Below are positions 1,718-31,152 of a stretch of 60,069 bases of DNA, one piece after another. The notes under the pieces were generated by a model. The model worked only from the letters and a program-made list of their open reading frames with translations. It had not been told where the DNA came from and searched no databases. The DNA comes from Oscillospiraceae bacterium (GTDB lineage Bacteria > Bacillota > Clostridia > Oscillospirales > CAG-272). The stretch is from assembly GCA_015065075.1 (NCBI GenBank), contig SVRA01000003.1:1-60069 (forward strand), written 5' to 3'. Made by a program: the position numbers and the translations under genes. How positions within the stretch are numbered: position 1 is the first letter of the stretch; the number at the start of each line of letters is the position of its first letter.

Positions 1718-3259
1718 TTATTTATTTTTCTTTACGACCCTTTTTACGAAGTTTTCAAGAGACTTGTTCGCGCTCTGGGCATTGCTATCGTAATAAGATG
1801 TAAGCTCGTAGCCGCTTGTCGCTGAGGTGACGTACGGCAGCATATAAAGCATATCGTTGGAAGCGTTTTCAAAGGTCTGACCGAAGTCTGTGCAAACGCT
1901 GTCCCAAACTATCTCAAGCATGTGTCTGTCATCGGGATTGTCGGCAACCTGCTTGCCGAGCAGCTTCTGGTAGAATGCGACCTTTACGCCGTCGCTGTAA
2001 TACGCGAGCATTTCAATGGTCTCTCCGACCATTTCTTCATCCTCAAAGTAAGCGGGAATAGCGAGATAACCACCCCACTGCAGCGAATGGTATTCTGTCT
2101 GATTGCTATCGAACAAAGGATAGGGAACTATACCGAAATCAATATCGTAATGAAGATATTCGGTAAGCTGATTGGTAGAGGATAGAGTCATGAGTGCTCG
2201 ATTAGTTGTGAAGGGAACAGTTATCTCAAAGGACCAATAATCCACGCAAGCGTAATCAGATGCAGCAAGATCCTTGAGCTTACCGACAAGCGCGATGGTC
2301 TTATCCTTGGTTTGTGCGTTGTAGAATGAAACCTCGTAGTTTCCTTGATCGTTCATCTCGACGAGATTGATGCCGCATCCCTCAAGGAAGCCGCACCACG
2401 GAACCCACTGAAGCCCCGTAAAGCCGTACTGATTTTTCTCAACGCTACCGTTGTCTATGTATGCAACCTTGGCGAGATCGATCATCTTATCGATCGTCCA
2501 CTCGTGGTCGTCGACCATCTGATAAATGCTCTTGTCAAGTACGTCGTCGTACTTTTCGAGCAGAGTTTTGTTAAAAGCGATAACGTATGTATAGAGAATA
2601 TTGAAGTCGTTAAAGCCTAGGAAATACATGTCGTCGATTGCAAGCGACTCCATAAAATCCTGATTCCAGTAATCAGCGTCAAGATCTATCTCGGGGATAT
2701 CGTTAAATTTGGTCAGATAACCGTCGGAGACAAGTCCTGCGACGTTAATGCTGACGTGAGTCATCATAAGATCTATTGCGCCTGATTTGGTCTTAACCGC
2801 TGTCTTGAAGGCGCTGGAGTAATCCTCCTCGGTGTTGTGCCAAGCGTACAGCTCGACTCCAAGATGATTTAGGATATCTTCCTGGCGGGCAAATAAAGCT
2901 GCGGATAATACGTCGTTGCCACTTTCTTCTACCCAATAATTATCGATAGGGTTGCAAGAGCCCTCAAGATACAAATAAAATATATCGTCGTAATTTTTCT
3001 TCTCAATATCGGGGACGTCAGGAGTTACCTCCGTGGTCTGCTCCGAAGTCTGTCCCGTGGTCTGCTCCGAAGCCTGTCCCGTGGTCTGCTCAGCGGTCTG
3101 TTCAGCGGTCTGACCCTCAGTCGGTTCAGTGGTTTCGTAGCCGTTGCCAGCAGAAGTCGTAGTATTTTCAGACGTGCCTGAAGCATCACACGCGGCAAAT
3201 ACAGAAAAAACAGAAAGAGCAGCCAATATAAGTGCCAACACTTTAAGCTTAAGTTTCAT
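1718..3259 (-). CDS. Extracellular solute-binding lipoprotein (carbohydrate ABC SBP-like)
   Basis: Lipobox VFAAC, T/E/Q-rich linker, SBP motifs IDLDADYWNQ, FNKTL, WTIDKM, DFGIVPYP. Confidence 0.8.
   Translation of the reverse strand: MKLKLKVLALILAALSVFSVFAACDASGTSENTTTSAGNGYETTEPTEGQTAEQTAEQTTGQASEQTTGQTSEQTTEVTPDVPDIEKKNYDDIFYLYLEGSCNPIDNYWVEESGNDVLSAALFARQEDILNHLGVELYAWHNTEEDYSSAFKTAVKTKSGAIDLMMTHVSINVAGLVSDGYLTKFNDIPEIDLDADYWNQDFMESLAIDDMYFLGFNDFNILYTYVIAFNKTLLEKYDDVLDKSIYQMVDDHEWTIDKMIDLAKVAYIDNGSVEKNQYGFTGLQWVPWCGFLEGCGINLVEMNDQGNYEVSFYNAQTKDKTIALVGKLKDLAASDYACVDYWSFEITVPFTTNRALMTLSSTNQLTEYLHYDIDFGIVPYPLFDSNQTEYHSLQWGGYLAIPAYFEDEEMVGETIEMLAYYSDGVKVAFYQKLLGKQVADNPDDRHMLEIVWDSVCTDFGQTFENASNDMLYMLPYVTSATSGYELTSYYDSNAQSANKSLENFVKRVVKKNK
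3031..3112. repeat. Coding tandem repeat (24-bp and 12-bp units) encoding EQTT/GQTS linker
   Basis: CCGTGGTCTGCTCCGAAG(T/C)CTGTC x2.5 then TCAGCGGTCTG x2. Confidence 0.85.
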
Positions 3260-6718: not shown

Positions 6719-6842
6719 CCGCACAAGCGGCGTAGTGGAGTTCAGCGTGAAAGGCACTTTGCACTTATAGGCAATTCAACTGCTTCACACACGAATTTTG
6801 CCGATGGCAAAATTCACCGATTATTATTTGTGGAGATATAAA
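6719..6842 (+). repeat. Family 1 cassette, copy 2
   Basis: CCGCACAAGCGG..TGGAG..GCGTGAA..TAGGCAATT..TTCACAC..GAATTTTGCC-GAT-GGCAAAATTC..TTTGTGGAGAT-ATG. Confidence 0.9.
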
Positions 6843-12134: not shown

Positions 12135-14780
12135 TTATTTCAGCTTTGCGATCGCCGCAACAATACCCTCGAGGTTTTCGCGGTATTTTGCCATCTTCGC
12201 TCTCTCACCCTCAACGACCGCGGCAGGAGCCTTGGCAACGAAGCCCTCGTTGGAAAGCTTCTTTTCGATTCTCTCGATCTCAGCTTCAAGCTTCTTCTTC
12301 TCGCCCTCAAGACGCGCCTTTTCCTTTTCAAAATCAATGATATCGGAAAGCGGCAGATAGATCGTAGCAGAGTCGGTGATTATCTGTACTGCATTGTCTG
12401 CACTGACCTCGTCCTCGGCAAACTTGTCGGCAACGATAAGCTCGGAGGCGGATGCGAGACGTGCAAAGAACGCCTCTGCGGTAGCAAATACGTCAGCGTA
12501 TCTGGTAGCAAGATAAACCTTCGCCTTTTTGGAGGGAGGAACGTTCATCTCGCTTCTGCGCGCTCTGATCGCCTTGATCGCGTCGATGATCTTCGTCATC
12601 TTCTCGGCATCGGCAGAGAAGCAGAGCGACTTGCAAGCCTTAGGATACTCGGAGATCATAATGCTCTCGCACTCGTGAGGCAGAGCCTGATATATCTCCT
12701 CGGTAATAAAGGGCATAAAGGGATGCAGAAGCTTGAGCGTTCCGCAAAGAACGTATGCGATAACGTTCTGGCAGGTAAGATTTGCCTCGGTGTCCTTTTC
12801 GTTAAGACGTGCCTTGGCAAGCTCAATGTACCAGTCGCAGAAGATATCCCAGGTAAATCCGTAGATCGCGCCGAGAGCAACGCCAACCTCAAAGTTGTCA
12901 AGATTGGTAACTACGTTCTCGCAAAGCGCGTTGAATTCGTTGAGTATCCACTTGTCCTCGATCGCGAGCTTGTCGGCATCGGGGAGCTTGATCTCATCAA
13001 TCGTCAGATTCATACGAACGAATCGCGACGCGTTCCAGAGCTTGTTGGCGAAGTTTCTCGCCGCCTCGATCTTCTCGTCGGAGAATCTCATATCGTTTCC
13101 GGGGGAGTTGCCCGTCGCAAGCGCGAAGCGGAGCGCATCCGCGCCGTACTGCTTGATGACCTCAAGAGGATCGATACCGTTACCGAGCGACTTGGACATC
13201 TTACGGCCCTGCGCGTCACGTACGAGACCGTGAATAAATACGGTAGAGAAGGGCTTTGCATCCATGTGCTCAAGACCCGAGAAGATCATACGCGATACCC
13301 AGAAGGTGATTATATCGTATCCCGTAACGAGCACGTCGGTGGGATAATATCTCTTGAGATCCTCGGTCTGCTCGGGCCAGCCGAGAGTAGAGAAGGGCCA
13401 GAGAGCCGACGAGAACCAGGTGTCAAGCACGTCCTCATCCTGATGAACCTTGGCGCCGCACTTGGGGCAGGTGTCAATGTCGACCTTAGAAACGGTCATC
13501 TCGCCGCACTCGTCGCAGTAGAAGGCGGGAATTCTGTGACCCCACCAGAGCTGACGTGAAATGCACCAGTCGAGAATATTGTTCATCCAGTTAAAATAGT
13601 TCTTGGAGAAGCGCTCGGGAACGAAGCTGATCTCGCCGCTCTCAACCGCCTCGATCGCAGGCTTTGCGAGAGGCTTCATCTTAACGAACCACTGGTCACT
13701 CGTGAGGGGCTCGACCGTCGTACCGCAGCGGTAGCAAACGCCAACGTTGTGGTCGTGAGGCTCAACCTTAACGAGATATCCCTCGGCTTCAAGATCGGCA
13801 ACGAGAGCCTTGCGGCAGGCATATCTGTCCATACCCTCGTATTTGCCGGCATAAGCGTTCATGGTCGCATCGTCGTTCATAACCTTGATCTGCTCAAGGT
13901 CGTGTCTCTGACCGACAAGGAAGTCGTTGGGGTCGTGTGCGGGCGTGATCTTAACGCAGCCCGTACCGAAGCCGATCTCAACGTAATCGTCCGCAATAAC
14001 GGGGATTTCTCTGTTAACGATGGGAAGAAGAACCTTCTTGCCGATAAGATGCTTGGTGTTCTCGTCCTCGGGGTTGACCGCGACCGCGGTATCACCGAAC
14101 ATAGTCTCGGGACGGGTGGTAGCAACCTCAACGTAGCCGTCCTCACCGATGATGGGATACTTGATGTGCCAGAAATGTCCGGGCTGATCCTTGTATTCAA
14201 CCTCCGCGTCGGAAAGCGCAGTCAGACAGCGAGGACACCAGTTGATGATACGGTGACCGCGATAGATAAGTCCCTTGTCGTAAAGGTTTACAAAGACCTC
14301 ACGAACCGCCTTGGAGCAGCCCTCGTCCATGGTGAATCTCTGTCTTGTCCAGTCGCACGATGCGCCAAGCTTCTTGAGCTGACCCGTAATGCGAGCCTCG
14401 TATGTGTCCTTCCAGCCCCAAACGCGTTCAAGGAACTTCTCACGACCGAGATCGTAACGGGTAAGACCCTCGTCAACGCGCAGTCTCTCCTCAACCTTGA
14501 TCTGCGTAGCAATGCCCGCGTGGTCGGTACCGGGAACCCAAAGCGTGTTGAAGCCCTGCATTCTCTTGTATCGAACGAGAATGTCCTGCAACGTCTCGTC
14601 AAGCGCGTGACCCATGTGAAGCTGACCTGTGACGTTGGGAGGGGGAATTACTATCGAAAAAGAGGGATTATTGTTGTTCTTGTCGGGCGTGAAATAACCC
14701 TTTTCACACCACTCGGCGTATATCCTGTCCTCAAACTCGGACGGCGAATACGTCTTCGGTAATTCATTGTAACTGTTCAT
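12135..14780 (-). CDS. valS: Valine--tRNA ligase
   Basis: [41 protein letters not shown]-terminal coiled coil. Confidence 0.99.
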
Positions 14781-14833
14781 TTTTTATATTTCCTTTCTGT
14801 TGTTAAACATAGTAACTGAATGTATCGATTTCT

Positions 14834-15200
14834 CTACTTTTCTTGAAAGAAAAGTAGCAAAAGAACTTCCCCTATATTTTGGGTCCTTTTACAGTGCCGT
14901 AGAATTTTTTCAGCGGCAAGCCTCGAAAAAATTCCTCTCTATCGTTTCTTACTTATAAGGTGTTGAACCCAAGCCATCTCGCCCGTCTTAAAACCAATAA
15001 TCAACCCGCCCGGTCGGCGAAGCCGACTTTTAAGATTAAAAGCAACTCAATCATCAAAACGGAGAGGGGAATTCTTAAGGGCGGAGAGGATGTTGAAGCA
15101 AGAGAAAATGCGGCTCGCTGCTTTTTTTCTTGCGAAACCCTCTCCCCCTTAAGCGGCGTTTCTTTTGTAACTTTTCTTGTCGCTGATGACAAGAAAAGTT
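14834..15200. mobile_element. REPIN/MITE-like non-coding insert with inverted palindromic ends
   Basis: Left end ACTTTTCTTG-AAAGAAAAGTAGCAAAAGAA mirrors the reverse complement of right end TTCTTTTGTAACTTTTCTTG...AAGAAAAGT; several internal hairpins. Confidence 0.5.
15069..15200 (+). repeat. Structured repeat family 2, copy A
   Basis: 80-nt stem-loop CTTAAG...CTTAAG with apical GCGGCTCGCTGC, linker CGGCGTTTCTTTT, terminal hairpin; homologous to 25808-25936. Confidence 0.88.
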
Positions 15201-15219
15201 AATAAAAACCCATACAAAC

Positions 15220-15490
15220 AAAAAAGCCCCGATGTAAAAACATCAGGACGTCAATACGCGGTACCACCTAATTTGCATCTGCCGTAGGGGCGGATTCCAT
15301 ATCCGCCCGAAAAAATCGGACAAACACCACTCAAAAGCTCTAACGTCGCCACCGTCGCAGACTACTCAGCAAAAAAGCCTTCACCCGCACCACTCGCAAG
15401 CTACCTTCAACCGCCGCCTCTGTGGATTTTCACCTGCCATCCACTCTCTGAAAGAGACCTGCGACCTACTCCTCTTGGTCATCGCGTTTA
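15220..15490 (-). promoter_or_regulatory. T-box riboswitch (Val) upstream of valS
   Basis: T-box AATTAGGTGGTACCGCG (15257-15273, minus), AGAGA and GGTGAAA stem I motifs, specifier GAAG-GTA-GC (GUA = Val, 15402-15404), terminator CCTGATGT/ACATCGGGG + T6. Confidence 0.95.
15284..15309 (+). repeat. GTAG-family REP palindrome
   Basis: GTAG-GGGCGGAT-TCCAT-ATCCGCCC-G. Confidence 0.7.
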
Positions 15491-15503
15491 AATATGATAA
15501 CAC

Positions 15504-15532
15504 ATTATAACACTTGTTTTGAGTTTTGTCAA
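15504..15532 (-). promoter_or_regulatory. Sigma-A promoter of the valS leader
   Basis: Perfect TTGACA-17-TATAAT with extended TG. Confidence 0.9.
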
Positions 15533-15675
15533 CCGTTTTATAACAGTTTTTTTAATGAAAGGAGCATTAATTCATATAAAAAACAACAAACGAAAATTGA
15601 TTCTCACGATGTTGGTAAGAAATTAGGTCTTTTATTCTATACTATCTCCATATTTGACGTGTTTCCATCATAATA

Positions 15676-15704
15676 TTGACATTTTTCGACGCAAATGGTA
15701 TAAT
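15676..15704 (+). promoter_or_regulatory. Sigma-A promoter of the ECF sigma gene
   Basis: Perfect TTGACA-17-TATAAT with extended TG; GGAGG RBS follows. Confidence 0.85.
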
Positions 15705-15732
15705 GTATACCGATTGGAAAGGAGGTCCTTGA

Positions 15733-16314
15733 ATGTTACCGATAATTTTGAACGTTGCTGATGACGACGACCGTTCATTCGTGGAAGATATCTACGTAAA
15801 ATATGAAAATCAGCTCTATTTGATATCAATGAAATACTTGCAAAATCATCACGATGCGCAAGACTGCGTACACGATACGATCAAATTGGTCATCGACTAT
15901 ATAGAAAAGTTTAAAACGGCGCAGGATAATGGATATCTTGAAAGACTGTTAACGGTGGTGTGCCGTAATTGTGCTAAAAACGCGTTGCGTGTGAAAATTC
16001 GAAAAAACGAGTACGAGCAGTCGCTCACCCGATACAATTACGACGAGGACTCATATGAGGATATCGATATCCCCGACTACACCTCGTGCGTTGATAAACT
16101 GTACGTCAGCGAAGAGAATTGTGAGTATCTTCATACGCTTATAAATAAACTTGACGATAAATACCGTGATGTTATTTTGTTTAAAAGCCTGGGCTTTGAC
16201 AGCAAAAGCATCGCTAAAATGATGAATATTTCCGAGGAACTTGTAAGAAAGAGATATTCGCGTGCGAAAAAGAAGCTTTGGGAAATGGGAGGTGAAGAGC
16301 TCTATGTTGAATAA
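15733..16314 (+). CDS. ECF-type sigma-70 factor
   Basis: Region 2 (YLQNHHDAQDCVHDT, VCRNCAKN) and region 4 HTH (LDDKYRDVI...IAKMMNISEELVRKRYSRAKKKL). Confidence 0.92.
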   Translation: MLPIILNVADDDDRSFVEDIYVKYENQLYLISMKYLQNHHDAQDCVHDTIKLVIDYIEKFKTAQDNGYLERLLTVVCRNCAKNALRVKIRKNEYEQSLTRYNYDEDSYEDIDIPDYTSCVDKLYVSEENCEYLHTLINKLDDKYRDVILFKSLGFDSKSIAKMMNISEELVRKRYSRAKKKLWEMGGEELYVE

Positions 16315-17047
16315 TACCGACAAATTCGATCATTTAATTGCATTGGCGGCAATGAAATGCACCGAGGAGGAGGCAAGCGAGCTCAAAAGCTTGGATACTT
16401 CATCCGTGAGCTTTGATCCCTCGTATTACAGAAAAAGGAACAAGGTTATACGCCAATATAAGTATAGGACGACCGGCAGGAGATCAACAGCAGCAAGATT
16501 GGCTGTGGCGATAGCGGCAGCGATTATTCTTATGTCGCTTTTGATAGGATGCGTGCCCAGACTCAGAGAGGCAATATATAATGCCATCGTCGAGTGGTAC
16601 AATGATTATTTTGCTGTTCGTTATGAAGACCCCGATGGCAAAGAGAAGGAGACCTTGTATGAGGAGGAGTCGACAACAGCAAACGAGCTTGGCGCAGATG
16701 CCCCAATATATATTGAGGACATACATAAACCAAGAGATCTGCCCGAAGGCGTTTGGGAGGATGTTCTATCCGAGAATAATACTCATATAACTATTGACTA
16801 CTATATTGGTGATGAGTATCTGTTTTCGTTTACACAGAATATATTGAAACCAATTGATAGATACGTCGATAATGAAGACGTAAACGTTACATATATTCAA
16901 ATTAATGGAAATGGTGCCACGGTCGTAGAATATATACACAAAAAAGAAATAAATATCATCTGGAGAGATAGCGAATATTCATATCATATATTTTCTACGG
17001 AATGTGATCTTGATACCTTGGTTCAATATGCAAAAAGTGTAAAATAA
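16304..17047 (+). CDS. Putative anti-sigma factor, DUF4367-like
   Basis: Overlaps sigma stop; single TM; extracellular PRDLPEG and DNE...IQINGNGA...IIW...YSYHI pattern. Confidence 0.75.
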   Translation: MLNNTDKFDHLIALAAMKCTEEEASELKSLDTSSVSFDPSYYRKRNKVIRQYKYRTTGRRSTAARLAVAIAAAIILMSLLIGCVPRLREAIYNAIVEWYNDYFAVRYEDPDGKEKETLYEEESTTANELGADAPIYIEDIHKPRDLPEGVWEDVLSENNTHITIDYYIGDEYLFSFTQNILKPIDRYVDNEDVNVTYIQINGNGATVVEYIHKKEINIIWRDSEYSYHIFSTECDLDTLVQYAKSVK

Positions 17048-17108
17048 ATTGCATTTTTTAAAATTAAATATCAAAAAATAAAAATTTTTAAAAAATCCTG
17101 AAAAATGT

Positions 17109-17136
17109 TGTCACGTTTTCGGGATTTTTTTGTTAT
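17109..17136 (+). promoter_or_regulatory. Putative cognate ECF promoter
   Basis: TGTCAC-17-GTTAT upstream of the secreted protein gene; no sigma-A match seen. Confidence 0.45.
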
Positions 17137-17179
17137 GAATATCGGGCCCCCAAAAATGTCTTGATGACATTGGAGGAAA

Positions 17180-17608
17180 ATGAAACGTAATAACGCAATA
17201 AAAGCAATCGTATCAATTGCGCTTTCGATTATTATGATCTGCTCGCTTACAGCTCCTGCATTTGCCGCGCAGCCCGAGGATACGGCCGTACAACCCAGAT
17301 GGACGAGCATCGCGACTATGGAAGTTAGTATGAGCTTTGTGGGAAGCGACGGTAACGTTTCGGCTATTGCAAGGAAGCAGTCAACCGCATCGCATATCGT
17401 AGGCACGCTCTATCTATACAAGTGGAACGGATCGTACTACGAATATATGGATGAGGTTTCGGGCAGCAAAAGGGTAGGAACCCTGGCTCTTAGTATCGAC
17501 TTCGTTTGCGAAAAAGGAGTTCAGTACAAGGGAGTCCTGACTGTTGTTGCTTATACTGATGAGCACGGTGAGTACGAAAGCGTTTACTACTGCGAAACCT
17601 GTAAATAA
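17180..17608 (+). CDS. Small secreted protein
   Basis: GGAGG RBS, signal peptide ending PAFA, VQPRW motif, beta-rich mature part. Confidence 0.8.
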   Translation: MKRNNAIKAIVSIALSIIMICSLTAPAFAAQPEDTAVQPRWTSIATMEVSMSFVGSDGNVSAIARKQSTASHIVGTLYLYKWNGSYYEYMDEVSGSKRVGTLALSIDFVCEKGVQYKGVLTVVAYTDEHGEYESVYYCETCK

Positions 17609-17699
17609 TTTGACTATAAGAAAATCTGCAATCAACCAAAAAATAATATTGATAGAAAGATCATTATAGACGTTCTACGGGGTCCAAAAAATACAATAT

Positions 17700-17960
17700 C
17701 TATTTATTCATCAGATCATTGATGACGTCAAGAAAATGTACCTGTGGAATTCTGTACTTATTCAAGATGTCAACGATAGATAGGGCGAGGTCCTTATCGG
17801 TGCCGATCTCCTTGATGCATATGACGTTATGCTCATATGCATCATGCACGGCTATACCGTAAGCATTCTCCGAGTCGGTTTTTGTGATCACAGCCAAACT
17901 GTATTCACATACGTCACCGAGAGAAGCTACACGAGCCGCGATTGATTTGTTCGTCTCCAT
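17700..17960 (-). CDS. Small protein, DUF6514-like
   Basis: AGGAG RBS before ATG 17960; YGIAV...I..I..D...A..I...L.......HF.DVI.D pattern. Confidence 0.65.
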   Translation of the reverse strand: METNKSIAARVASLGDVCEYSLAVITKTDSENAYGIAVHDAYEHNVICIKEIGTDKDLALSIVDILNKYRIPQVHFLDVINDLMNK

Positions 17961-18046
17961 TTTGCGACACTCCTTTCTTTCGGGTGACATCATTATACCC
18001 TATGCAAAAAAGTGTTTTTATCACTGTACAACAGCCCCTTTGTCAA

Positions 18047-18440
18047 TGAAAGCACAAAGCATATGGCGCAGATCAATTATTGGATATCTATGATTGAAAC
18101 AGAAGGACTGGGCAGCGTATCTAAAGATATAGAGAAGTTTGACGTTTCTGCTCTGGATAAAATATTCTATATTGCAAAATACGTTTTGTTGCAAGATTTT
18201 GAAAAAGTGTCGGGAATTATTGACGATCTCTACACTAAAAAAGAGATACCTATTTATGCGCTGGAAGAATGGCCGTTGTTTATGCACTATAAATTATCAC
18301 CTGAATATTGTGCGTTTAAGAAGAGACACGCCGAGCTGGGCGCCGTTGTCATGTCTGAACCCAAAACAGAGAATTTGATGGAAAACAATAAAGCAACACA
18401 AAACGTGCGAGCTGAATTGCAAGAATCCGAAAATGCTTAA
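18047..18440 (+). pseudogene. Probable 5'-truncated remnant of a larger foreign gene
   Basis: Protein-like AT-rich frame (INYWI, FDVSAL, LEEWPLF) with no RBS; 5' end runs into the promoter region of the divergent gene. Confidence 0.45.
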
Positions 18441-18593
18441 CAAGTCAGAAACAGTGGAGAAAAATGTGATCAATCTTGATCCACATTCTGATACTAAAAA
18501 ATCGGAAAGAGCATTGCCTCTTTCCGATTTTTTGAGTAAGTTGTCAATTATATCTAACCTTGGCTTTACCCCCGAGATATGTGATCTTCGGGG

Positions 18594-18833
18594 ATGTTTT
18601 TGCTTGCCACGTACACGTACAACAGCAACAACGGCAAGCTGGTGTCTATGAAATACGGAAACGACACCATTCCTGTAACTTATCAGTACGATGCTCTTGA
18701 CAGATTGAAAAGAGTCTGCTGTAACATTGAAGGTAAGCTTTCGGAATACGTCCGGTATAATCTTGATGATAGAGGCATTTGCTTGTCATTAAAAAACGGC
18801 AAGTTTCTAAAAAATATTAGATTCAAAAAATAA
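18594..18833 (+). pseudogene. RHS/YD-repeat fragment
   Basis: LATYTYNSNNGKLVSMKYGN...VTYQYDALDRL resembles YD repeats; only about two repeats, no core or toxin tip. Confidence 0.65.
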
Positions 18834-18856
18834 TTTAAAAAATTTGAAAAAAGGGG

Positions 18857-18885
18857 TTGACAAATCGAAATTTGTTTGATATAAT
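18857..18885 (+). promoter_or_regulatory. Sigma-A promoter of tRNA-Thr
   Basis: Perfect TTGACA-17-TATAAT with upstream A-tracts. Confidence 0.9.
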
Positions 18886-18915
18886 AGACAAGTCGTCAAG
18901 ACAAAGTGAATATTT

Positions 18916-18991
18916 GCTGGTATGGCTCAGTCGGTAGAGCACGTCATTGGTAATGACGAGGTCATCAGTTCGATTCTGATTACCAGCTCCA
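18916..18991 (+). tRNA. tRNA-Thr(GGT)
   Basis: 76 nt; acceptor GCTGGTA/TACCAGC, D arm GCTC/GAGC, anticodon arm CGTCA-TTGGTAA-TGACG, T arm ATCAG-TTCGATT-CTGAT, encoded CCA. Confidence 0.98.
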
Positions 18992-19020
18992 AAATCCATC
19001 GCAAAAGCGGTGGATTTTTT
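18992..19020 (+). terminator. tRNA terminator (duplicated at 19152-19180)
   Basis: AAATCCATCGC-AAAA-GCGGTGGATTTTTT. Confidence 0.85.
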
Positions 19021-19036
19021 GTTTCTACTTCGCCAC

Positions 19037-19151
19037 GGCTCAGTCGGTAGAGCACGTCATTGGTAAGGACGACCTACGTTCGCTGCGCTCACTGTGCGAA
19101 ATTGCTTCGCAATTATCGGGATCATCAGTTCGATTCTGATTACCAGCTCCA
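19037..19151 (+). pseudogene. Pseudo-tRNA-Thr copy with 47-nt insertion
   Basis: Matches 18924-18991 except 2 substitutions and an insert at 19073-19119; 5' acceptor strand missing. Confidence 0.88.
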
Positions 19152-19239
19152 AAATCCATCGCAAAAGCGGTGGATTTTTTGTTTTCCTTGACATTTTCTT
19201 CAAACTATGCTACCATAGTTACAGAAAGGCGGTGAACTT

Positions 19240-19605
19240 ATGAGCAATAAAGCAGGATCAATAGCTGTAATATGTATCTTAACTATTCTGCTGATAATTT
19301 CAGTAGCAATCTTCCTTTCGACTCAAAACTCATTGGACAATATGCAAAACGTCGATCCCTCCAACGATCAATTACCGGGAGCATCTGTTCTGGCAACAAT
19401 TATTGGCTCGCTGACAGTATGGTTAGGCTTCATATTGGGCGAGTTCATCGTTTCTATGATAGGATTTGCCGGTTCCTTCTTGGCAATTAAAATCGCCCCA
19501 AGTCGCGTCCTGAAGGGAATTTCCATCGGCTTTTTCGTTTTCTATTCATTGATTGCTCTGGTATCAACCGCTGCGATCGTTTTCATTGTTATAGCAATCG
19601 TATAA
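19240..19605 (+). CDS. Small membrane protein (about 3 TM)
   Basis: Own promoter TTGACA-17-TACCAT (19188-19216), RBS, hydrophobic helices. Confidence 0.75.
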   Translation: MSNKAGSIAVICILTILLIISVAIFLSTQNSLDNMQNVDPSNDQLPGASVLATIIGSLTVWLGFILGEFIVSMIGFAGSFLAIKIAPSRVLKGISIGFFVFYSLIALVSTAAIVFIVIAIV

Positions 19606-19624
19606 CAGCATAATTTCAAATCAC

Positions 19625-19657
19625 AAAAAGCGCAACGCCATCGGCGTTGCGCTTTCT
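19625..19657. terminator. Bidirectional terminator
   Basis: AAAAAGCGCAACGCC-ATC-GGCGTTGCGCTTT. Confidence 0.8.
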
Positions 19658-20754
19658 CATTTTTTCCTCCCCATCACGATCGGCAACACCGCCGCCAAGA
19701 AAAACACACAGCAAACGAACGCCGCATTTGAGTAATCTCGTCCCGACACCTCAAGGGACGGGAGCTTTGCCAAAGCCTCCTTTGAAAAGGGAAATATCTT
19801 CAATGCAACCCACATCAGCGCCGTACATATCACCCCCTGTGCCGCTTTGGCAATAAAAAACGGTTTAAATGACACCCCGCGCCCCGAGCATATCGTTATT
19901 ATCTGAAAATGCACCGATAACCCCGACCACCCCGCGCCCGCCGCGCAAAGCAAGACCGCCGCCAATGGAGCGCCGACCTCAACCGCCGCCCCCATTCCGC
20001 TTGATATCTCAAAAAATCCAAATATCATAGCCGTCACCACTCGCGGAATATCGATCTCGGCAAGCAGCGACCCGATGCACCCGACGAACGACGAGAAAAA
20101 CACCACGTACGCGCATACCGTTATCATCGAGATAGCCGAACTCTGAATAGCCGACGTAAAGACCTCGATCGCGCCTTTTCTCTCAAAAGCAACCGCACCA
20201 TACCCCGATTTTGACCGCCCATCCCCGATCTTCCCGAAAAATATCCTCTCAAAAACACCGACAATGACCGCCGAAAGCAGAACGCACCCGTATAGCGTGA
20301 CCCCAAGCTCGACACTGCCAAGGAGCGATACCCCTACCGCGCTTATCACGAACGCCGACCCGGGATTGTTGCAAAACGTCAGCGCTCGCGAAAACTCGCG
20401 ATCAGAGATCTCACCGCGATCATACAGAGAGCATAGCGTCTTCGCCCCTATGGGAAATCCGCAGATCGCGCCAAGCACGAAGGCACAAGCCCCCGCCTCG
20501 CTTATTCCAAATAGAAATCTCGTCGGTTTCGCCAACAATCTCCCCACACGCTGCCCGACACCGCTGTGGATCAGCAGCTCGGAGATTATCATAAAAGGGA
20601 AAAGTGACGGAATGACCGCCCCTGCGCATAGTTGAAGCCCCTTTTTCATATAATTGATTGCAACGCTCGAACGGATCAGGAAAAGAAGGAAAGCCGCCGA
20701 GGCGATCACAGCAAAGATCGGGAATCTACGTTTTTTTGCCTCTGCACGCGCCAT
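19657..20754 (-). CDS. ylbJ: Sporulation integral membrane protein YlbJ-like
   Basis: VIPSLFPF, CGFPIGAK, FCNNPGSAFV, FEISSG, GWSGLSVHFQ; start at ATG 20754 behind AAGGAGG. Confidence 0.85.
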   Translation of the reverse strand: MARAEAKKRRFPIFAVIASAAFLLFLIRSSVAINYMKKGLQLCAGAVIPSLFPFMIISELLIHSGVGQRVGRLLAKPTRFLFGISEAGACAFVLGAICGFPIGAKTLCSLYDRGEISDREFSRALTFCNNPGSAFVISAVGVSLLGSVELGVTLYGCVLLSAVIVGVFERIFFGKIGDGRSKSGYGAVAFERKGAIEVFTSAIQSSAISMITVCAYVVFFSSFVGCIGSLLAEIDIPRVVTAMIFGFFEISSGMGAAVEVGAPLAAVLLCAAGAGWSGLSVHFQIITICSGRGVSFKPFFIAKAAQGVICTALMWVALKIFPFSKEALAKLPSLEVSGRDYSNAAFVCCVFFLAAVLPIVMGRKK

Positions 20755-20814
20755 TTTTACCCTCCTTAAAGCGAACTTAATTTCAGTAAAATATATTTTG
20801 TCCGAGGTCGTAAT

Positions 20815-21138
20815 ATGAGTGCAGAGCCAAATAAAGTTCATAAGGAGAAAAGGGGATTTCTCGAATTCCTCGCAGTTAAGGCAGAGCTGCCGAGCGACGT
20901 GCTGGGAGGCGACTTTCACATAGAGCTCCGAGGCAGAAACACGCTTTTTATGCAGGGCTGCCGCAGAATATTGAAATATTCCCCCGACGAAATGATAATG
21001 TCGGCGCGCGGCTTTGCTGTGGTGATCGAGGGTGAGCGCCTTATCTGCTCAACCTACCACAGCGGCACTGTAACGGTGGAGGGTAACATATTGGCAGTCC
21101 GCTTCGACCTGCCGGATAGCGAGGAGAAAAACAGATGA
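20815..21138 (+). CDS. yqfC: YabP/YqfC family sporulation protein
   Basis: ELPSDV...IELRGR...GCRRILKY...IEGERL...VEGNI; directly upstream of yqfD. Confidence 0.8.
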   Translation: MSAEPNKVHKEKRGFLEFLAVKAELPSDVLGGDFHIELRGRNTLFMQGCRRILKYSPDEMIMSARGFAVVIEGERLICSTYHSGTVTVEGNILAVRFDLPDSEEKNR

Positions 21139-22310
21139 ATATATCCTACTTTATTTGCGGCTATGTCACGATAAAAGCGAATTACGATAATATCACCCCG
21201 CTTCTCAATCTCTGTATGTACTATTGCATACCGTATTCAAACTTCAGAGCCGAGACCGACGGCGTACTTCTCACTATGCGCCTCTCGGCCAAAAAGAAGC
21301 TCGAAAAAGAAGCAAAAGCGAGGGGAATAGAATTCGAAACCGTCAAAAAAGGCGGCATTCCCACGCTACTGTCGCGGTATAAGCACAGATACGGAATACC
21401 GATAGGAGTGCTTGTTGCCGCCGCGCTCGTCTTTTTCTCGCATCGATTCGTCTGGGATATAGAGGTCACGGGCAACGAGAATATCACCACCTCCGAGATC
21501 TGCGAGGCCTTAAAAAGCTACGGGCTCGGAGTCGGCTCGTATATCCCGTCGCTAAATACCGACAGAATAGAGAACGAATTTCTGCTTGATTCCGAAACAG
21601 TGTCGTGGATATCGGTAAACCTTATCGGCACGGTCGCCGAGGTACAGATAAGAGAGTACCGGGGAGAGACCGACGAGCAGGCGTCGACCAAACCCGCCAA
21701 CCTCGTCGCCTCGAAATCGGGGATCATACAAGAGGTAAGAGTGTATAACGGCAACGTGGTCGTCGTGTCGGGACAGCACGTCGATCAAGGCGACCTGCTC
21801 GTAAGCGGCCTTTACGATAGCAAAACGCTCGGCTTTCGCTACACCCGCGCCGAAGGAAGCATAATGGCAAAAACCGTTACCGAATATTATATCGAAATCC
21901 CCTACGAATACGAGGCAACAGTCTACACGGGGGCAGAATATTACGATAAATATTTAAATTTTTTTGACTATTCGATTAACATTTCAAAAAATAGTGGAAA
22001 AGAGGGCGCATTATATGATACAATAAGTATAGTGGAGAGTCTTTGCCTTCCCGACGGGACCGAGACCCCGTTTGAGATGCGGACCGTAAAGCATTTGGAA
22101 TATGAATCGGTCACGCTGACCCGTACCGCAGCCGAAGCCGAGGAGCTCGCGTATTTCGAGCTTTCTCAAAGACTTGCAGCGGCGGCAGAGGGCACGACGA
22201 TCCTCCGCAAAATAATCGTTCCGCAAATAAAGGACGGCTCCTTTGCGCTTTACTGTACCGTGATAGCCATCGAGGATATCGCGAAAACGGTGGAGTTCGA
22301 GGTCGAGTAA
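21135..22310 (+). CDS. yqfD: Sporulation protein YqfD
   Basis: FVWDIEVTGNE, SWISVNLIGT, PANLVASKSGII, GDLLVSG, EDIA; yqfC-yqfD-phoH synteny. Confidence 0.9.
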   Translation: MNISYFICGYVTIKANYDNITPLLNLCMYYCIPYSNFRAETDGVLLTMRLSAKKKLEKEAKARGIEFETVKKGGIPTLLSRYKHRYGIPIGVLVAAALVFFSHRFVWDIEVTGNENITTSEICEALKSYGLGVGSYIPSLNTDRIENEFLLDSETVSWISVNLIGTVAEVQIREYRGETDEQASTKPANLVASKSGIIQEVRVYNGNVVVVSGQHVDQGDLLVSGLYDSKTLGFRYTRAEGSIMAKTVTEYYIEIPYEYEATVYTGAEYYDKYLNFFDYSINISKNSGKEGALYDTISIVESLCLPDGTETPFEMRTVKHLEYESVTLTRTAAEAEELAYFELSQRLAAAAEGTTILRKIIVPQIKDGSFALYCTVIAIEDIAKTVEFEVE

Positions 22311-22328
22311 CACTTGAAAGGACAAAAA

Positions 22329-23390
22329 GTGAGCAGTAAAATAATCAAAATAGAAAGCCCCGACGTGCTGGCAACGGTCTTCGGCAGCTGCGATTCAAAC
22401 GTAAAGATAATCGAAAAGAAATTCGGCGTCGCCGTGCATAATCGCATCGCGGACAGCGGAGAGGACGTAATCGTCGTCTCGGGCGATCAGGACATGGCGG
22501 TCAGTCAGGCGGCAAGCGCCGTGGCGTACCTTGTCAAAATGGCAAAATATAACGAAAACATCAACGATCAAAGCGTGATATACGTCTGCGACACGGTGAG
22601 CTCGGGCAACTCGGGCGAGCTCGAGGAGCTTGGCGACGATACTATCTGTGTCACGATGAAGGGCAAGCCGATCAAGGCAAAGACCGTCGGACAAAAGCAG
22701 TACGTCAACGCGATCAAAAAGAACACCATAGTGCTCGGCATCGGACCTGCGGGAACGGGAAAGACCTTCCTCGCGGTCGCAATGGCGGTCAAGGCACTCC
22801 GCGAAAAGCAGGTGTCGAGAATAATCCTCACCCGACCCGCTATCGAGGCGGGCGAAAAGCTCGGATTTTTGCCGGGTGACCTGCAAAGCAAGATCGACCC
22901 CTACCTCCGCCCACTCTACGACTCGCTCTACGAAATGATGGGCGCGGAGAATTATCAGCGTCAGGTCGAGAAGGGAGTTATCGAGGTCGCACCCCTGGCG
23001 TATATGAGAGGAAGAACGCTCGACGATTCCTTCATAATCCTCGACGAAGCGCAAAACTGTACCCCCGAGCAAATGAAAATGTTTCTGACCCGACTCGGAT
23101 TCAACTCAAAGGCGGTCGTAACGGGAGACCTTACCCAGACCGACCTGCCGTACGGACAGAAAAGCGGTCTTGCCGAGGCGGTCAAGATCCTCACCGACAT
23201 CGAGGATATCGCGATCCATAGCTTCAGCGAGCGCGACGTGGTAAGACATAAGCTCGTGCAGAAGATAATACTCGCATACGAAAAATACGACAAGGAGCGC
23301 AGAGAGAAATACTCGCGCAACGACGATAAAAAGCATAACGACAGAAAGGAAACGGACGGCAAGCACAGCTACCGCCCCTCAAGGAATTGA
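22329..23390 (+). CDS. phoH: PhoH family protein
   Basis: GPAGTGKTFLA, LTRPAIEAGEKLGFLPGD, PLAYMRGRTL, DEAQN; GTG 22329 follows AAGGA. Confidence 0.95.
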   Translation: MSSKIIKIESPDVLATVFGSCDSNVKIIEKKFGVAVHNRIADSGEDVIVVSGDQDMAVSQAASAVAYLVKMAKYNENINDQSVIYVCDTVSSGNSGELEELGDDTICVTMKGKPIKAKTVGQKQYVNAIKKNTIVLGIGPAGTGKTFLAVAMAVKALREKQVSRIILTRPAIEAGEKLGFLPGDLQSKIDPYLRPLYDSLYEMMGAENYQRQVEKGVIEVAPLAYMRGRTLDDSFIILDEAQNCTPEQMKMFLTRLGFNSKAVVTGDLTQTDLPYGQKSGLAEAVKILTDIEDIAIHSFSERDVVRHKLVQKIILAYEKYDKERREKYSRNDDKKHNDRKETDGKHSYRPSRN

Positions 23391-23395
23391 CCGAT

Positions 23396-23890
23396 ATGAA
23401 CAGAAAAATGGGACTAAAGATCTATTTTGAAAACGCGCAGGACAAGCTCCCGCTGACCTATAAAATGAAAATGCTCATCAGAGAAGCCGTCGAAACCACG
23501 CTTGATTTCGAGGATTTTCAGAATCATTGCGAGGTCTCGGTGACCTTCACGGATAACGAGGGAATACACGAGCTCAACAAGAAATTCCGCGAGGTAGACA
23601 AGCCCACCGACGTGCTCTCGTTCCCCCTTTTCGACTTTGAGGGCGAGACCGACGAGCCCCCCGTCGACGAGATAATGAGCAACCTCGGCGATATCGTCAT
23701 TTCCCTTGAAAAAGCAAAAGAGCAGGCAGATGAATACGGTCATTCCTTCGAGCGCGAGGTCGCGTTCCTTTGCGTCCATTCAATGCTCCACCTGCTCGGC
23801 TATGACCACGAAACAAGTGACGAGGACGACGTCGAAATGAGATCCAAGCAGACCGAAATAATGAGAATAATGGGCCTTGAGGTCAAATAA
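23396..23890 (+). CDS. ybeY: rRNA maturation endoribonuclease YbeY
   Basis: PTDVLSFP, LGDIVIS, HSMLHLLGYDH. Confidence 0.97.
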   Translation: MNRKMGLKIYFENAQDKLPLTYKMKMLIREAVETTLDFEDFQNHCEVSVTFTDNEGIHELNKKFREVDKPTDVLSFPLFDFEGETDEPPVDEIMSNLGDIVISLEKAKEQADEYGHSFEREVAFLCVHSMLHLLGYDHETSDEDDVEMRSKQTEIMRIMGLEVK

Positions 23891-23908
23891 AAAGCAAGGA
23901 AAAAGATA

Positions 23909-24793
23909 ATGAAAAAAACAGGATTTATAGCAATAGTAGGAAGACCTAACGTAGGAAAATCCACGCTTCTCAATAGCATTCTCGGCGAAAAGGTGGCGAT
24001 AGTCTCCTCCAAGCCGCAGACCACGAGAAACAGAATCATCGGAATACATACCGTCGGCGACGATCAGTACGTGTTCCTTGATACCCCGGGCATTTTCAAG
24101 CCGCGCAACAGCCTCGGCTCTTATATGGTAAAAACGGCTAATTCCTCGATGCAGGATGCAGATGCGGTTATCCTTGTTGTCGATACGGGTAAGCCGATAA
24201 GTGAGACCGAGAAAAACGTAATAACCTACCTCAAAAGAACCGAGACCCCAAGTGTCCTCGTTCTCAATAAGATCGACCTCTACCGCCGCGAGCAGATAGC
24301 CGAAACAATCGCCGCATATAGCGAGCTCCACTCGTTTGACGCGGTCGTGCCGATCTGCGCGAAGAACGGAAAGGGAGTGGACGAGGTGCTCGACGAGTGT
24401 AAAGCCTTCCTTGGCGAGTCCGACTTCTTTTTCCCCGAGGATATGGTCACAGATCAGTCCGAGCGTCAGGTAGCTGCCGAGGTCATCCGCGAAAAGCTCT
24501 TGAGAACACTCAATAAAGAGATCCCCCACGGCATCGCCGTCGCGATCGAGGAGTTCAAGGACGAGGGAAGCCTCGTCAGTATCCGCGCCGAGATCTTCTG
24601 CGAAAAGGCGTCGCATAAGGGAATTATCGTCGGCAAGAACGGCGAGGAGCTCAAGCGCGTCGGATCGTACGCGCGCGCTGACCTTGAAGCCATATTCGGC
24701 GCAAAGGTTTACCTCAACCTCTGGGTAAAGGTCAAGGAAAATTGGCGCGATAGCCAGAGAGGAATCACCGACTTCGGCTTCACCGAGGACTGA
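23909..24793 (+). CDS. era: GTPase Era
   Basis: GRPNVGKSTL, PQTTR, DTPG, NKID, KH domain KGIIVGKNG. Confidence 0.98.
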   Translation: MKKTGFIAIVGRPNVGKSTLLNSILGEKVAIVSSKPQTTRNRIIGIHTVGDDQYVFLDTPGIFKPRNSLGSYMVKTANSSMQDADAVILVVDTGKPISETEKNVITYLKRTETPSVLVLNKIDLYRREQIAETIAAYSELHSFDAVVPICAKNGKGVDEVLDECKAFLGESDFFFPEDMVTDQSERQVAAEVIREKLLRTLNKEIPHGIAVAIEEFKDEGSLVSIRAEIFCEKASHKGIIVGKNGEELKRVGSYARADLEAIFGAKVYLNLWVKVKENWRDSQRGITDFGFTED

Positions 24794-24830
24794 TCAGGAA
24801 TCAAAAAAACAACGTAAGAGGAGTAAGGAT

Positions 24831-25625
24831 ATGACCTTCGCAACCGACGGGCTTATCACCCGCGTGATCGACGTAGGCGCGTCGGACAAGCTTGTAAATA
24901 TCATAACCCACTCGCGCGGACGAATCGGCGTGATGGTCAAGGGCGGACGTTCTCCAAACAGTAAGCTGACCGCAATATCTCAGCTTTTTACTTACGGAAA
25001 TTTCGAGATCTACGAAAAGAATTCAATGTATTGGCTTCGCGGCGGCTCGGTCACCAATTCCTTTTATAACCTCTCCACCGACGTCTCGAAGGTCGCGCTT
25101 GCGGCGTATCTTTGTGACCTCGCCAACGAGCTGACCGATGAGGACGAGGAGTGCGACGAGCTGCTCAGATTGCTGCTCAATTCGCTTTTCCTTATAGGTA
25201 AGGGAGAAAAGGATCAGGCGATAATAAAATCAGTCTTTGAGTTTCGCACCGCGGCAAACTCGGGATATCTCCCCGAGCTTTCGGGATGCGTGTATTGCGG
25301 AAGCGGCAGCGCCGATCAGATCTACCTCGACGTAATGGGCGGAAGACTTATCTGTACCGATTGTCTTTCGAGAAGAGGAGAGAAGCGTCCGAATATTTCA
25401 AAGGAATTCGACGATATGCCCTCGGCAACCGTGCTCTGCGGTATCTCACCGTCAACTCTTGCGGCTCTGCGATATATCGCATACGCCCCCGCAAATAAGG
25501 TCTTTTCCTTTGACCTGAAGGACGACTCCGATATCCGCGACCTTTCCAAAGCCACCGAAGCGTATATCCTCAACCACCTCGGACGAAGCTTCGACTCACT
25601 CGATTTCTATAAAGCAGTTATGTAA
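24831..25625 (+). CDS. recO: DNA repair protein RecO
   Basis: OB-fold N-terminus, GYLPELSGCVYCG...GGRLICTDC zinc finger, era-recO synteny. Confidence 0.93.
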   Translation: MTFATDGLITRVIDVGASDKLVNIITHSRGRIGVMVKGGRSPNSKLTAISQLFTYGNFEIYEKNSMYWLRGGSVTNSFYNLSTDVSKVALAAYLCDLANELTDEDEECDELLRLLLNSLFLIGKGEKDQAIIKSVFEFRTAANSGYLPELSGCVYCGSGSADQIYLDVMGGRLICTDCLSRRGEKRPNISKEFDDMPSATVLCGISPSTLAALRYIAYAPANKVFSFDLKDDSDIRDLSKATEAYILNHLGRSFDSLDFYKAVM

Positions 25626-25628
25626 AAA

Positions 25629-25659
25629 AACGGGAGCAGACATACCGTCTGCTTCCGTT
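25629..25659 (+). terminator. Hairpin after recO
   Basis: AACGGGAGCAGAC-ATACC-GTCTGCTTCCGTT. Confidence 0.7.
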
Positions 25660-25807
25660 AATTCTTAAACTCCATCTTGCGAAGCACAAGCGTGTGCGAG
25701 CAACACAGCATTACTTTCACCCAAGATGGACAAAAGAGCCCCATCAGGAAGTTCAACCACGCGGCTTCAGATTCGGAAACACAGTGTGCCGAAGGCGAAA
25801 GGGTGGA

Positions 25808-25936
25808 GAATTCTTAAAGAGAAGGGAGATGTTGAGCAAGTTCAAAACGCGGCTCGCTGCTTTTTGAACGGCGAAACCTCCCTTCTTTTTAAGCGGCGTT
25901 TCTTTTCGTAGTTTTCTTGCCGCTGTTGGCAAGAAA
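25808..25936 (+). repeat. Structured repeat family 2, copy B
   Basis: Same architecture as 15069-15200 with compensatory stem changes. Confidence 0.88.
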
Positions 25937-25947
25937 TGAACACCTCT

Positions 25948-26445
25948 CTATCTCCCAAATCTCCTCTTCCCACGCTTAGCCACTCTTTTAACATTCCCCG
26001 CAAGTGCCCCAAGCACCGAGAAAACGATCACCAACGCATGTAAAAGCAAAGATTGCCAAAGCTCAAAGTTAGAGGACGAAATCCCCTTGAGCACAATAGA
26101 AAACAACATCGCGCAAACCGTTGAAAGCCCTCCGCAAATGATCCCGCAAAGCGCAGGCGCATCCTTGACCCTTTTGGCGGTCACAAATCCGCCGATAAAC
26201 GCAGAGGGAAAGAGCGCAATAAGCGATAGCGATGAAATTAAACTCAGCGGATCAGGACTTGCAAGTGCCGCAGCGGATAGCACGCTGATAAGAATAATCC
26301 CCGAGATAAACGTGACCAAAAGCCCCCAAAGAGAGCATTTCAGCACAGATGTAAAAAGCGGTGACTCGTCGCCAGAGCGTGACCGCGCGGCAACGGGAGT
26401 CGTACGCGAGCGCACGAGCGCGGAAGACCTTTGATTTCTGTTCAT
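25948..26445 (-). CDS. TIGR04086/YrzE-like membrane protein
   Basis: 4 TM, AFIGGFVTAK...G...G pattern, basic C-terminus, next to yajC. Confidence 0.75.
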   Translation of the reverse strand: MNRNQRSSALVRSRTTPVAARSRSGDESPLFTSVLKCSLWGLLVTFISGIILISVLSAAALASPDPLSLISSLSLIALFPSAFIGGFVTAKRVKDAPALCGIICGGLSTVCAMLFSIVLKGISSSNFELWQSLLLHALVIVFSVLGALAGNVKRVAKRGKRRFGR

Positions 26446-26480
26446 AATAAAAACGCCTCCGTAACGTATATTTCCGTAGA

Positions 26481-26507
26481 AATATATGCCTTCGGAAGCG
26501 TTTTTAT
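26481..26507 (-). promoter_or_regulatory. Sigma-E (mother cell) type promoter
   Basis: ATA-16-CATATATT matches the B. subtilis SigE consensus. Confidence 0.6.
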
Positions 26508-26530
26508 TACTTTTATGAAGATCTGATCGG

Positions 26531-26869
26531 TCAGTCGATAGAGTCCTCTGCCTTAACGTCAACGCGGCTGACAGCAGTCTTGAGAATGCGGATCTTGGTG
26601 CCGTCGCGGCTAGTCTCGATAACGCAGGTCTCCTCCTTGATGCTTACGATCTTGCCGATGATACCGCCGATCGTGGTGATCTCGTCGCCAACCTGAAGAT
26701 TGTTGCGCATGCTTGCAATCTCCTGATCTTGCTTTCTTTGTTTGCGAGAGCTCACTACCATAATAACGATCAGGATTCCGATCATAATAACGGGCAGCAA
26801 CAACGAAGTAAGGCCTCCACCGTTGTTTGGAGTGCTGGTCGATGAGAGCAAAAGAGCTGTATTGAGCAT
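26531..26869 (-). CDS. yajC: Preprotein translocase subunit YajC
   Basis: Single TM, MRNNLQVGDEITTIGGIIGKI. Confidence 0.93.
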   Translation of the reverse strand: MLNTALLLSSTSTPNNGGGLTSLLLPVIMIGILIVIMVVSSRKQRKQDQEIASMRNNLQVGDEITTIGGIIGKIVSIKEETCVIETSRDGTKIRILKTAVSRVDVKAEDSID

Positions 26870-31049: not shown

Positions 31050-31152
31050 TTCCTACCATTAGGTAATTATGCTTTTTCACGCGAGAAATTTGCCGTTGGC
31101 AAAATTCGCAAATCATATTTGTGCCGCTGCACGCGGCGGAATGGAGATTAAA
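31029..31152 (+). repeat. Family 1 cassette, copy 3
   Basis: GGAG..GCGTGAAA..TAGGTAATT..TTTCACGC..GAAATTTGCC-GTT-GGCAAAATTC..TTTGTGCCGC..GCGGCGGAATGGAGAT-ATG. Confidence 0.88.

Follow-up and report, generated by a model that had tools for sequence, protein, structure and literature searches.

Several described families of small repeats can be set beside the element analysed here. The bcr1 repeats (group A bcr repeats) of the B. cereus group are, in the part of PMC3184786 drawn on here, intergenic Firmicutes elements of ~155 nt with two independent stem-loops and compensatory changes; they are transcribed, have 5-bp direct repeats at their ends and show a distribution that is not conserved among close strains. 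For the REP, BIME and REPIN sequences of Enterobacteria and Pseudomonas and their RAYT partner, the portion of PMC3116915 used here describes short imperfect palindromes, inverted doublets that form long hairpins, mosaic clusters, compensatory changes and sites after genes or between convergent genes; it gives REPs as G+C-rich sequences of 20-40 nt that flank and co-occur with a single-copy RAYT. The BOX, RUP and SPRITE repeats of Streptococcus pneumoniae are, again in that part of PMC3184786, modular (boxA-(boxB)n-boxC) and non-autonomous with stable predicted folds, and RUP and BOX have candidate mobilising IS. Classical MITEs (Correia/NEMIS and others) are small and non-coding, with insertion polymorphism, high copy number and terminal inverted repeats.

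The window, by which we mean the whole 60,069-nt stretch of Oscillospiraceae DNA that was analysed, holds two copies (A and B) of a repeat that has something of each of these systems. It is like bcr1 in its intergenic setting in Firmicutes, its size (~138 nt), its two independent stem-loops, its compensatory changes and its uneven distribution among close strains, but the sequences are not similar, no direct repeats are readable at its ends, and the present family is modular and often found as inverted pairs. All the features listed above for REP, BIME and REPIN sequences as a group recur here; in contrast to REPs, however, the smaller hairpin (P3) is A+T-rich, the unit is 138 nt long with a conserved single-stranded linker, and a RAYT-like gene neither flanks nor tracks it. 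BOX, RUP and SPRITE share its modularity, its stable predicted folds and its lack of autonomy but differ in sequence, host and the candidate IS, of which none was found here. Compared with classical MITEs, it has the small size, the non-coding content, the insertion polymorphism, the copy number and, in its composite form only, terminal inverted repeats; here, though, each arm has its own covarying, strand-biased hairpins, the P1 hairpins of the arms differ, and neither a target duplication nor a parent IS was found. The element lacks what defines the REPIN-RAYT system and has the features of a MITE only in part. The repeat family is previously undescribed, with no match in Rfam or in the literature searched for its linker motif or for gut-Clostridia repeats. 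Our best reading is a mobile mosaic repeat of the MITE, BIME and bcr1 kind whose hairpins must fold in one strand, and copies A and B are probably members of such a lineage-restricted, high-copy and non-autonomous mobile repeat of uncultured gut Clostridia.

On this reading the basic unit would measure about 138 nt and comprise a purine-rich lead-in, a long hairpin (P1) with an exchangeable tip, a single-stranded linker, (A)AGCGGCGTTTCTTT, and P3, an AT-rich hairpin of 12-15 bp. It would occur solo, fused to other modules (290 nt) or as inverted pairs around a core of ~190 nt (~560 nt in total). The features of the two loci are collected in Table 1.

Table 1. Positions of the repeat units and of the neighbouring features at the two window loci.
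Feature	Position	Strand	Basis
Copy A, complete two-hairpin unit (5' purine-rich flank, P1, linker, P3)	15062-15202	+	model R1, 147.3 bits, model positions 1-138
Copy A P1, long composite hairpin	15074-15153	+	MFE structure, pair counts
Copy A linker, conserved, pyrimidine-rich, CGGCGTTTCTTTTG, no convincing pairing	15154-15167	+	near-invariant columns 235-248 of alignment A3
Copy A P3, AT-rich hairpin, 14 bp, loop GCTGAT	15168-15201	+	self match, MFE, pair counts
Block inserted between valS ribosome-binding site and T-box terminator, ~415 nt	14799-15213		comparison with relatives
valS	12135-14780	-	NF004349, 1258 bits; TIGR00422, 1146 bits
valS T-box leader	15241-15491	-	RF00230, 115.9 bits
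T-box terminator of valS	15249-15226	-	terminator prediction
valS promoter, TTGACA-17-TATAAT, 12/12	15532-15504	-	promoter prediction
Copy B, two-hairpin unit	25801-25942	+	model R1, 131.7 bits
Copy B P1	25813-25893	+	R1 match, MFE
Copy B linker	25894-25912	+	R1 match, MFE
Copy B P3	25913-25936	+	R1 match, MFE
Copy B locus, full 290-nt composite (130-140-nt 5' module plus two-hairpin unit)	25658-25947	+	repeat copies, empty site
recO	24831-25625	+	gene context
Terminator hairpin common to recO and the DUF3792 gene	25635-25653		terminator prediction, relative comparison
DUF3792 gene, convergent with recO	25948-26562	-	gene context

In copy A the base helix of P1 is CTTAAGGG/CCCTTAAG, followed by GGAGAGG/CCTCTCC; its internal loop holds a 3-bp GTT/AAC helix, CAAGAGAAAA/TTTTTTCTTG lies further in, and the tip is an apical mini-hairpin, GCGG-CTCG-CTGC. 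Folded alone, the + strands of copies A and B reach minimum free energies of -69.0 kcal/mol (z -8.2) and -58.8 kcal/mol (z -5.4), with 0 of 200 shuffles as good in either case, and in both copies the - strand is ~13 kcal/mol less stable. On alignment, A (15069-15200) and B (25808-25936) are 78-80% identical. An earlier note on this DNA had described the two copies as keeping a set of unpaired motifs while their stems change on both arms. Indeed GATGTTGA, GCGAAACC, GCGGCTCGCTGC and AAGCGGCGTTTCTTTT are found in each copy and the three stem pairs listed as different are there as well. The motifs are not wholly unpaired, however, since the GTT within GATGTTGA forms a helix with AAC or GAC in GAAACC that itself covaries (U-A in 8, U-G in 5 and C-G in 1 of 15 copies). 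What had been taken for a plain apical loop turned out to be a mini-hairpin of 4-5 bp with a recurrent G.U. Two further candidates were rejected. For a helix that would close the linker on the purine-rich 5' flank, pairing is 80%, yet neighbouring registers show 70-76%, and the signal looks like an effect of purine/pyrimidine composition. A short ORF from a conserved ATG after GGAGAGG in P1 varies among copies in length and frame (by eye).

The earlier note had also proposed that the structure is under selection, and that claim is supported by a larger alignment, where covariation is strong and unusually clean. A covariance model of 138 positions (R1) was built from 15 copies of the variant first noticed (alignment A2), and its 121 matches, 105 of them distinct, were aligned; being model-fitted, this alignment leans to the structure. 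Among the 105 distinct copies standard pairs are formed by 97.0% of cells, against 76.3% in 500 shuffles (none as high), and pairing falls to 46-55% when partners are slid by 1-3 columns. Changes on both sides are found in 37 of the 39 pairs, and double changes in 10 of the 12 pairs of P3. As a check on the lean of the fitted alignment, a structure-blind MAFFT alignment of 15 copies gave 96.2% paired versus 86.5% after shuffling (0/500 as high), with 17 of 39 pairs compensatory. The observation that G-T pairs favour the + strand also held: the distinct copies have 224 G.T against 43 A.C cells, a figure that may be inflated somewhat, R1 rewarding G.U, while the 13 kcal/mol gap between strands is independent of the model. 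Pairs with at least five such cells number 12 for G.T and 3 for A.C.

What had been described as a family of two copies has 16 R1 matches in this genome (G000, a 1.84-Mb metagenome-assembled genome, or MAG, 74.6% complete) and hundreds in the genus, where 30 of the 39 genomes have matches. With counts per genome taken from the best 84 candidates, the highest are at least 84 (G001), 82 (G023), 52 (G012 and G015) and 41 (G032). All the genomes are fragmented MAGs with contigs breaking at these repeats, so that copy numbers and architectures are incomplete. BLAST with a longer stretch found 11 copies of the 5' module of the 290-nt form in this genome, most of them bearing a different P1 tip. Other genera of the same taxonomic family carry multi-copy versions of 75-95 nt (15 genomes; 12 of the 96 genera sampled) that have a short P1 and the linker and P3 arms of the 138-nt unit. 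For 24 other families of the order, each represented by one genome, a plain DNA search gave no match. An exact 20-mer of the 5' module occurs at 25 places in a species-representative collection, 9 of these loci being divergent pairs, and 24 of the places are MAGs titled uncultured Clostridia, Eubacteriales or Clostridium. The elements are dispersed, non-coding and 138-560 nt in size, and their neighbours are unrelated housekeeping genes (recO, mraZ, ppdK, pfkA, rpsO, ftsK and others).

Copy A is antisense to valS, as had been noted, and sits in the valS leader between the T-box terminator and the start codon. It is part of the ~415-nt block of Table 1, which also contains a different repeat (14810-14977) and whose termini are imperfect inverted P3-like hairpins. 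The block is found in this genome and its nearest relatives G034, G029 and G016; in 13 other genomes of the genus the spacer at the same site is only 23-231 nt long, and all 7 of these that were inspected (G008, G024, G015, G001, G022, G018 and G026) lack the block. The repeat at 14810-14977 belongs to a second, unrelated-looking family, with copies in relatives too and at least seven more in this genome (C14, three on C19, C12, C77 and C55); its left end, CTACTTTTCTTGAAAGAAAAGTAG then CAAAAGAAC, resembles an inverted P3 plus linker. The 1058-nt valS-leader spacer of G017 was considered as an autonomous element and set aside as an ordinary inserted gene of ~310 aa, which lies between T-box and valS at G017:C31 (L073) 421-1491. 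From this arrangement the T-box of G017 would govern a two-gene unit.

Copy B had been placed at 25808-25936. Its sequence is real, yet the copy turned out to be the 3' half of the 290-nt element at 25658-25947, which lies directly 3' of the recO/DUF3792 terminator hairpin, at a position within the T-tract of the relative with an empty site. In that relative, G027, recO is 96% identical and a mere 25 nt (terminator and T-tract) stand where the window has the element. A third locus of G000, the pfkA/marR spacer (C81), measures 630 nt against 325 nt in G027, where it holds just a P3 hairpin between inverted 23-nt arms. G001 likewise has two composites, of 569 and ~800 nt, that are missing from the collinear G008 (88-90% identical). 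Empty sites in close relatives are clean at both window loci, and at two sites of another species as well, from which we conclude that the element was inserted. At neither the recO site nor G001 site 1 was there a clear direct repeat that would mark a target-site duplication, the flanks differing by 4-12% between the compared species. Contigs from four DNA runs over 14400-26700 break at the repeats, and no empty-site joint was found in them at either copy. In the recO spacers of G029:C17 (L110) and G034:C13 (L112) there are an extra 120-190 nt of other repeat modules, lying between the first 20 nt of the element and the CTTGCGAAGC start, with CCTTG on both sides; to judge from this layout they look like a nested insertion into the element.

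Other features of the window were recorded in passing. A 69-nt repeat family, TGGAG..CAGCGTGAA....TTCACGCGCGAATTTTGCCG, has copies at 688-756, 6736-6804 and 31028-31096 and also at G000:C68:1520-1600; one of the copies immediately precedes a diaminopimelate-dehydrogenase-like gene, there is no Rfam match at gathering, and the family is probably the one called family 1 in the earlier note. In contigs from three DNA runs, 15552 is followed by 31 other letters and then by 18825, a joint which implies that 15553-18824 (3.27 kb) is missing or replaced in related strains. This stretch abuts a tRNA gene (18916-18988) whose 3' part and terminator are duplicated at 19037-19072 and 19117-19184 (97%), and 15553-18824 and 18916-19184 together look like an integrated element with an att-type duplication. 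At 3007-3126 a tandem repeat of 12-nt period, CCGTGGTCTGCT / CCGAAGTCTGTC, probably lies in a coding region and encodes a short peptide repeat.

The common composite of G001 consists of a - arm, a core of ~190 nt and a + arm, bounded by AT-rich inverted repeats of ~35 nt. A 15-mer of this terminal repeat occurs 79 times in G001 compared with 15 times for the reversed control, and the terminal inverted repeats are absent from solo units and from the 290-nt form of copy B. Within one composite the P1 sequences of the two arms are different, and additional linker-plus-P3 units can stack at composite ends. At G000:C68:540-735 at least six tandem 27-nt units (half of P3 plus spacer) lie at the outer end of one copy. 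A 253-aa ORF was seen between the two copies of a pair on C46. At the valS site G000 and G029 have one type of P3 and G034 and G016 another, while the P1 differences group the genomes otherwise (G034 with G029); at the recO site G034 has an alternative P1 tip; and the apical mini-hairpin is reverse-complemented in 5 of the 105 distinct copies. The swaps of P3 and of the P1 tip at orthologous loci, together with the flipped apex, mean that modules have been exchanged and flipped between copies.

Such exchange bears on the possibility that the covariation is a by-product, with template switching perfecting the palindromes and gene conversion copying modules under no functional constraint. Whole-module replacement (the two P3 types at valS that are discordant with P1, the P1 tip replaced at G034 recO), flipped apex modules and mosaic loci such as the tandem half-P3 array and the G027 pfkA/marR spacer are what one would see in that case. 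Template switching, however, is strand-blind and gives perfect Watson-Crick palindromes; it predicts neither the five-fold excess of G.T over A.C, nor G.T at the same pairs across genera, nor the conservation of the unpaired linker and internal loop across 13 genera, and we regard a pure by-product as unlikely.

If the hairpins are recognised during mobility, one candidate is the RAYT-like Y1 (HUH) transposase of the genome, which would move a REP/REPIN-type element on its folded single strand. Its 192-aa ORF (G000:C41:10841-11416) matches NF047646 with E 6e-16 and has an HUH-like PNHIHIV, but the score of 58.6 bits lies below the NCBIfam cut-off of 80 bits. P3 is an imperfect palindrome of REP size, the G027 P3 with its inverted 23-nt arms forms a REPIN-like long palindrome, and inverted doublets are common among the copies, as in REPINs. 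Covariation is present too, and compensatory changes have been reported for REPINs in the cited portion of PMC3116915. Against this, element and gene do not go together across the 39 genomes (both in 20, the element only in 10, the RAYT-like gene only in 4, neither in 5). The genomes with the element and no RAYT-like gene include G001 (at least 84 copies), G012 (52) and G008 (19), and no Y1_Tnp candidate at all turned up in G027 or G029, which are 96-97% complete. At the 12 RAYT-like loci inspected, neither an R1 match nor a P3-like hairpin lies within ~1.5 kb. Moreover, an association with REPs is limited to RAYT groups 2 and 3 and is not clear for group 1, the one found in Clostridia, in the section of PMC5581495 used here. 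A REPIN-RAYT system is on these grounds very improbable. The RAYT-like gene itself (L065:1210-1788) overlaps the end of ddl and is present in 24 of the 39 genomes of the genus, sometimes as several copies or fragments.

Still harder to sustain is a derivative of the IS200/IS605 type, be it a PATE or the guide (omega) RNA scaffold of TnpB or IscB, to which we give hardly any credence. The solo and 290-nt forms do show a sharp border on the 5' side, neither terminal inverted repeats nor a target duplication, and sub-terminal hairpins on one strand, and the 290-nt body is structured. Yet TnpB-type PF07282 is found nowhere in this genome (8 of 14 genomes gave the positive control), no motif is common to the element and the IS200 tnpA genes of G001 and G008, HEARO and other Rfam omega-RNA-like models gave no match, and the favoured hairpins of the composite arms lie on opposite strands, unlike the ends of IS200/IS605. 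PF01797 yielded the sub-threshold RAYT-like match alone in this genome. Searches with RRXRR (PF14239) in this genome and with Y2_Tnp/IS91 (PF04986) in five high-copy genomes gave no match, the control being likewise silent in both. Reverse transcriptase was dropped as a candidate; it is found in G001 and G023 only, neither locus is near an element, and the G001 copy lies amid phage-looking genes (by eye). As for a parent IS or autonomous copy, no terminal-repeat motif pair 1-3 kb apart was found in G001, and incomplete MAGs may miss an IS. The distribution of the element follows that of none of these gene types, be it RAYT-like, IS200, TnpB or reverse transcriptase.

A different view is that the unit is a functional structured RNA, either an sRNA gene on a mobile cassette or a cis-acting 3'-end stabiliser or processing signal; the covariation would then reflect selection at the RNA level for the host, which is compatible with mobility. 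The strand-specific G.U excess (224 to 43) is in keeping with it, as is the recurrence of G.U at fixed pairs (columns 56:184 with 37 cells and 253:286 with 42 cells). We also count in its favour the apical G-CUUG-C / G-CUCG-C loop, which we take to resemble the CUYG tetraloop class. Sigma-70-like promoters directed towards an arm, in the favoured sense of that arm, are found in some G001 cores (12/12 in L168, 10/12 in L162 and L171); these core promoters, though, are not conserved, the TATAAT box being present in 3 of 6 aligned composites, and at copies A and B the + strand has neither a predicted promoter nor a predicted terminator. Solo copies are sense to both neighbours in 11 cases and antisense to both in 3 (12 others are mixed and 15 have one unscorable side), counts which rest on heuristic gene calls, include orthologous copies and do not separate a transcription bias from a replication-strand bias. 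Orthologous recO copies differ by one compensatory change made in place (A-U to G-C), a hint of selection on the resident copy, but the orthologous valS copies show several stem changes without compensation. The antisense position of copy A in the valS leader, the flipped apex of five copies and the lack of a common function among genes beside the copies also count against a host RNA. The search for an identity with a described family ended in the absence of any such family from Rfam 15: at gathering the T-box and one tRNA alone pass in the window, and permissive thresholds (E <=10 or <=1) added merely generic hairpin (miRNA) matches far below gathering. There is a precedent in the bcr1 of the B. 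cereus group, mobile, transcribed and with compensatory changes in the cited part of PMC3184786. On balance we consider a host-serving RNA possible, though doubtful.

Thus, of the two alternatives put forward at the outset, an RNA motif or a single-stranded DNA substrate of a mobilising enzyme, the evidence moves to the mobile-element side because of the orthologous empty sites, the copy number of at least 84 per genome and the modular, often inverted-pair architectures; the search for an enzyme gave no gene associated with the element, and the fold may also act at the RNA level. The family is insertion-polymorphic, of high copy number, exchanges modules and conserves pairing in a strand-specific manner. 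We infer that the element is moved in trans by some enzyme and that the copies propagated or kept are those whose P1 and P3 fold in the + strand, as single-stranded DNA or RNA. If only folding copies propagate, this step would produce the compensatory pattern across subfamilies. Resident copies may then be at most passive hairpin blocks in leaders and 3' regions, with the valS copy presumably a passenger of the leader, transcribed antisense. What speaks against the mobile-repeat reading is that no transposase is linked to the element, that no autonomous copy with the same ends was found in G001, and that no target-site duplication is readable. Cut-and-paste of double-stranded DNA by a DDE-type enzyme alone would not need strand-specific hairpins, and the outward promoter-like sites predicted in composite cores would fit an RNA product.

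One tentative possibility, to which we assign a small share of the probability, is that the fold is the substrate of a structure-specific mobilisation that involves neither RAYT nor IS200 TnpA nor IS91, or that the element is a self-propagating cassette of small-RNA genes, read outward from a central bidirectional promoter. If either were true, Clostridia would harbour a REPIN-like replicator that is spread across the family and persists by vertical descent, served by a new partner enzyme or yielding an RNA product. As a mobile repeat, the family accounts for the covariation without a new riboswitch or sRNA, and mobile hairpin repeats that can pass covariation tests call for caution in the discovery of RNA motifs from metagenomes. 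For the organisms themselves, the family is a visible share of the intergenic DNA in a genus of uncultured ruminant-gut Clostridia; its copies break short-read assemblies, and insertions have reached regulatory DNA such as the valS T-box leader and a shared terminator. With a strand-specific constraint and neither RAYT nor IS200 as a partner, the repeat lends itself well to studying what maintains the fold of hairpin repeats.
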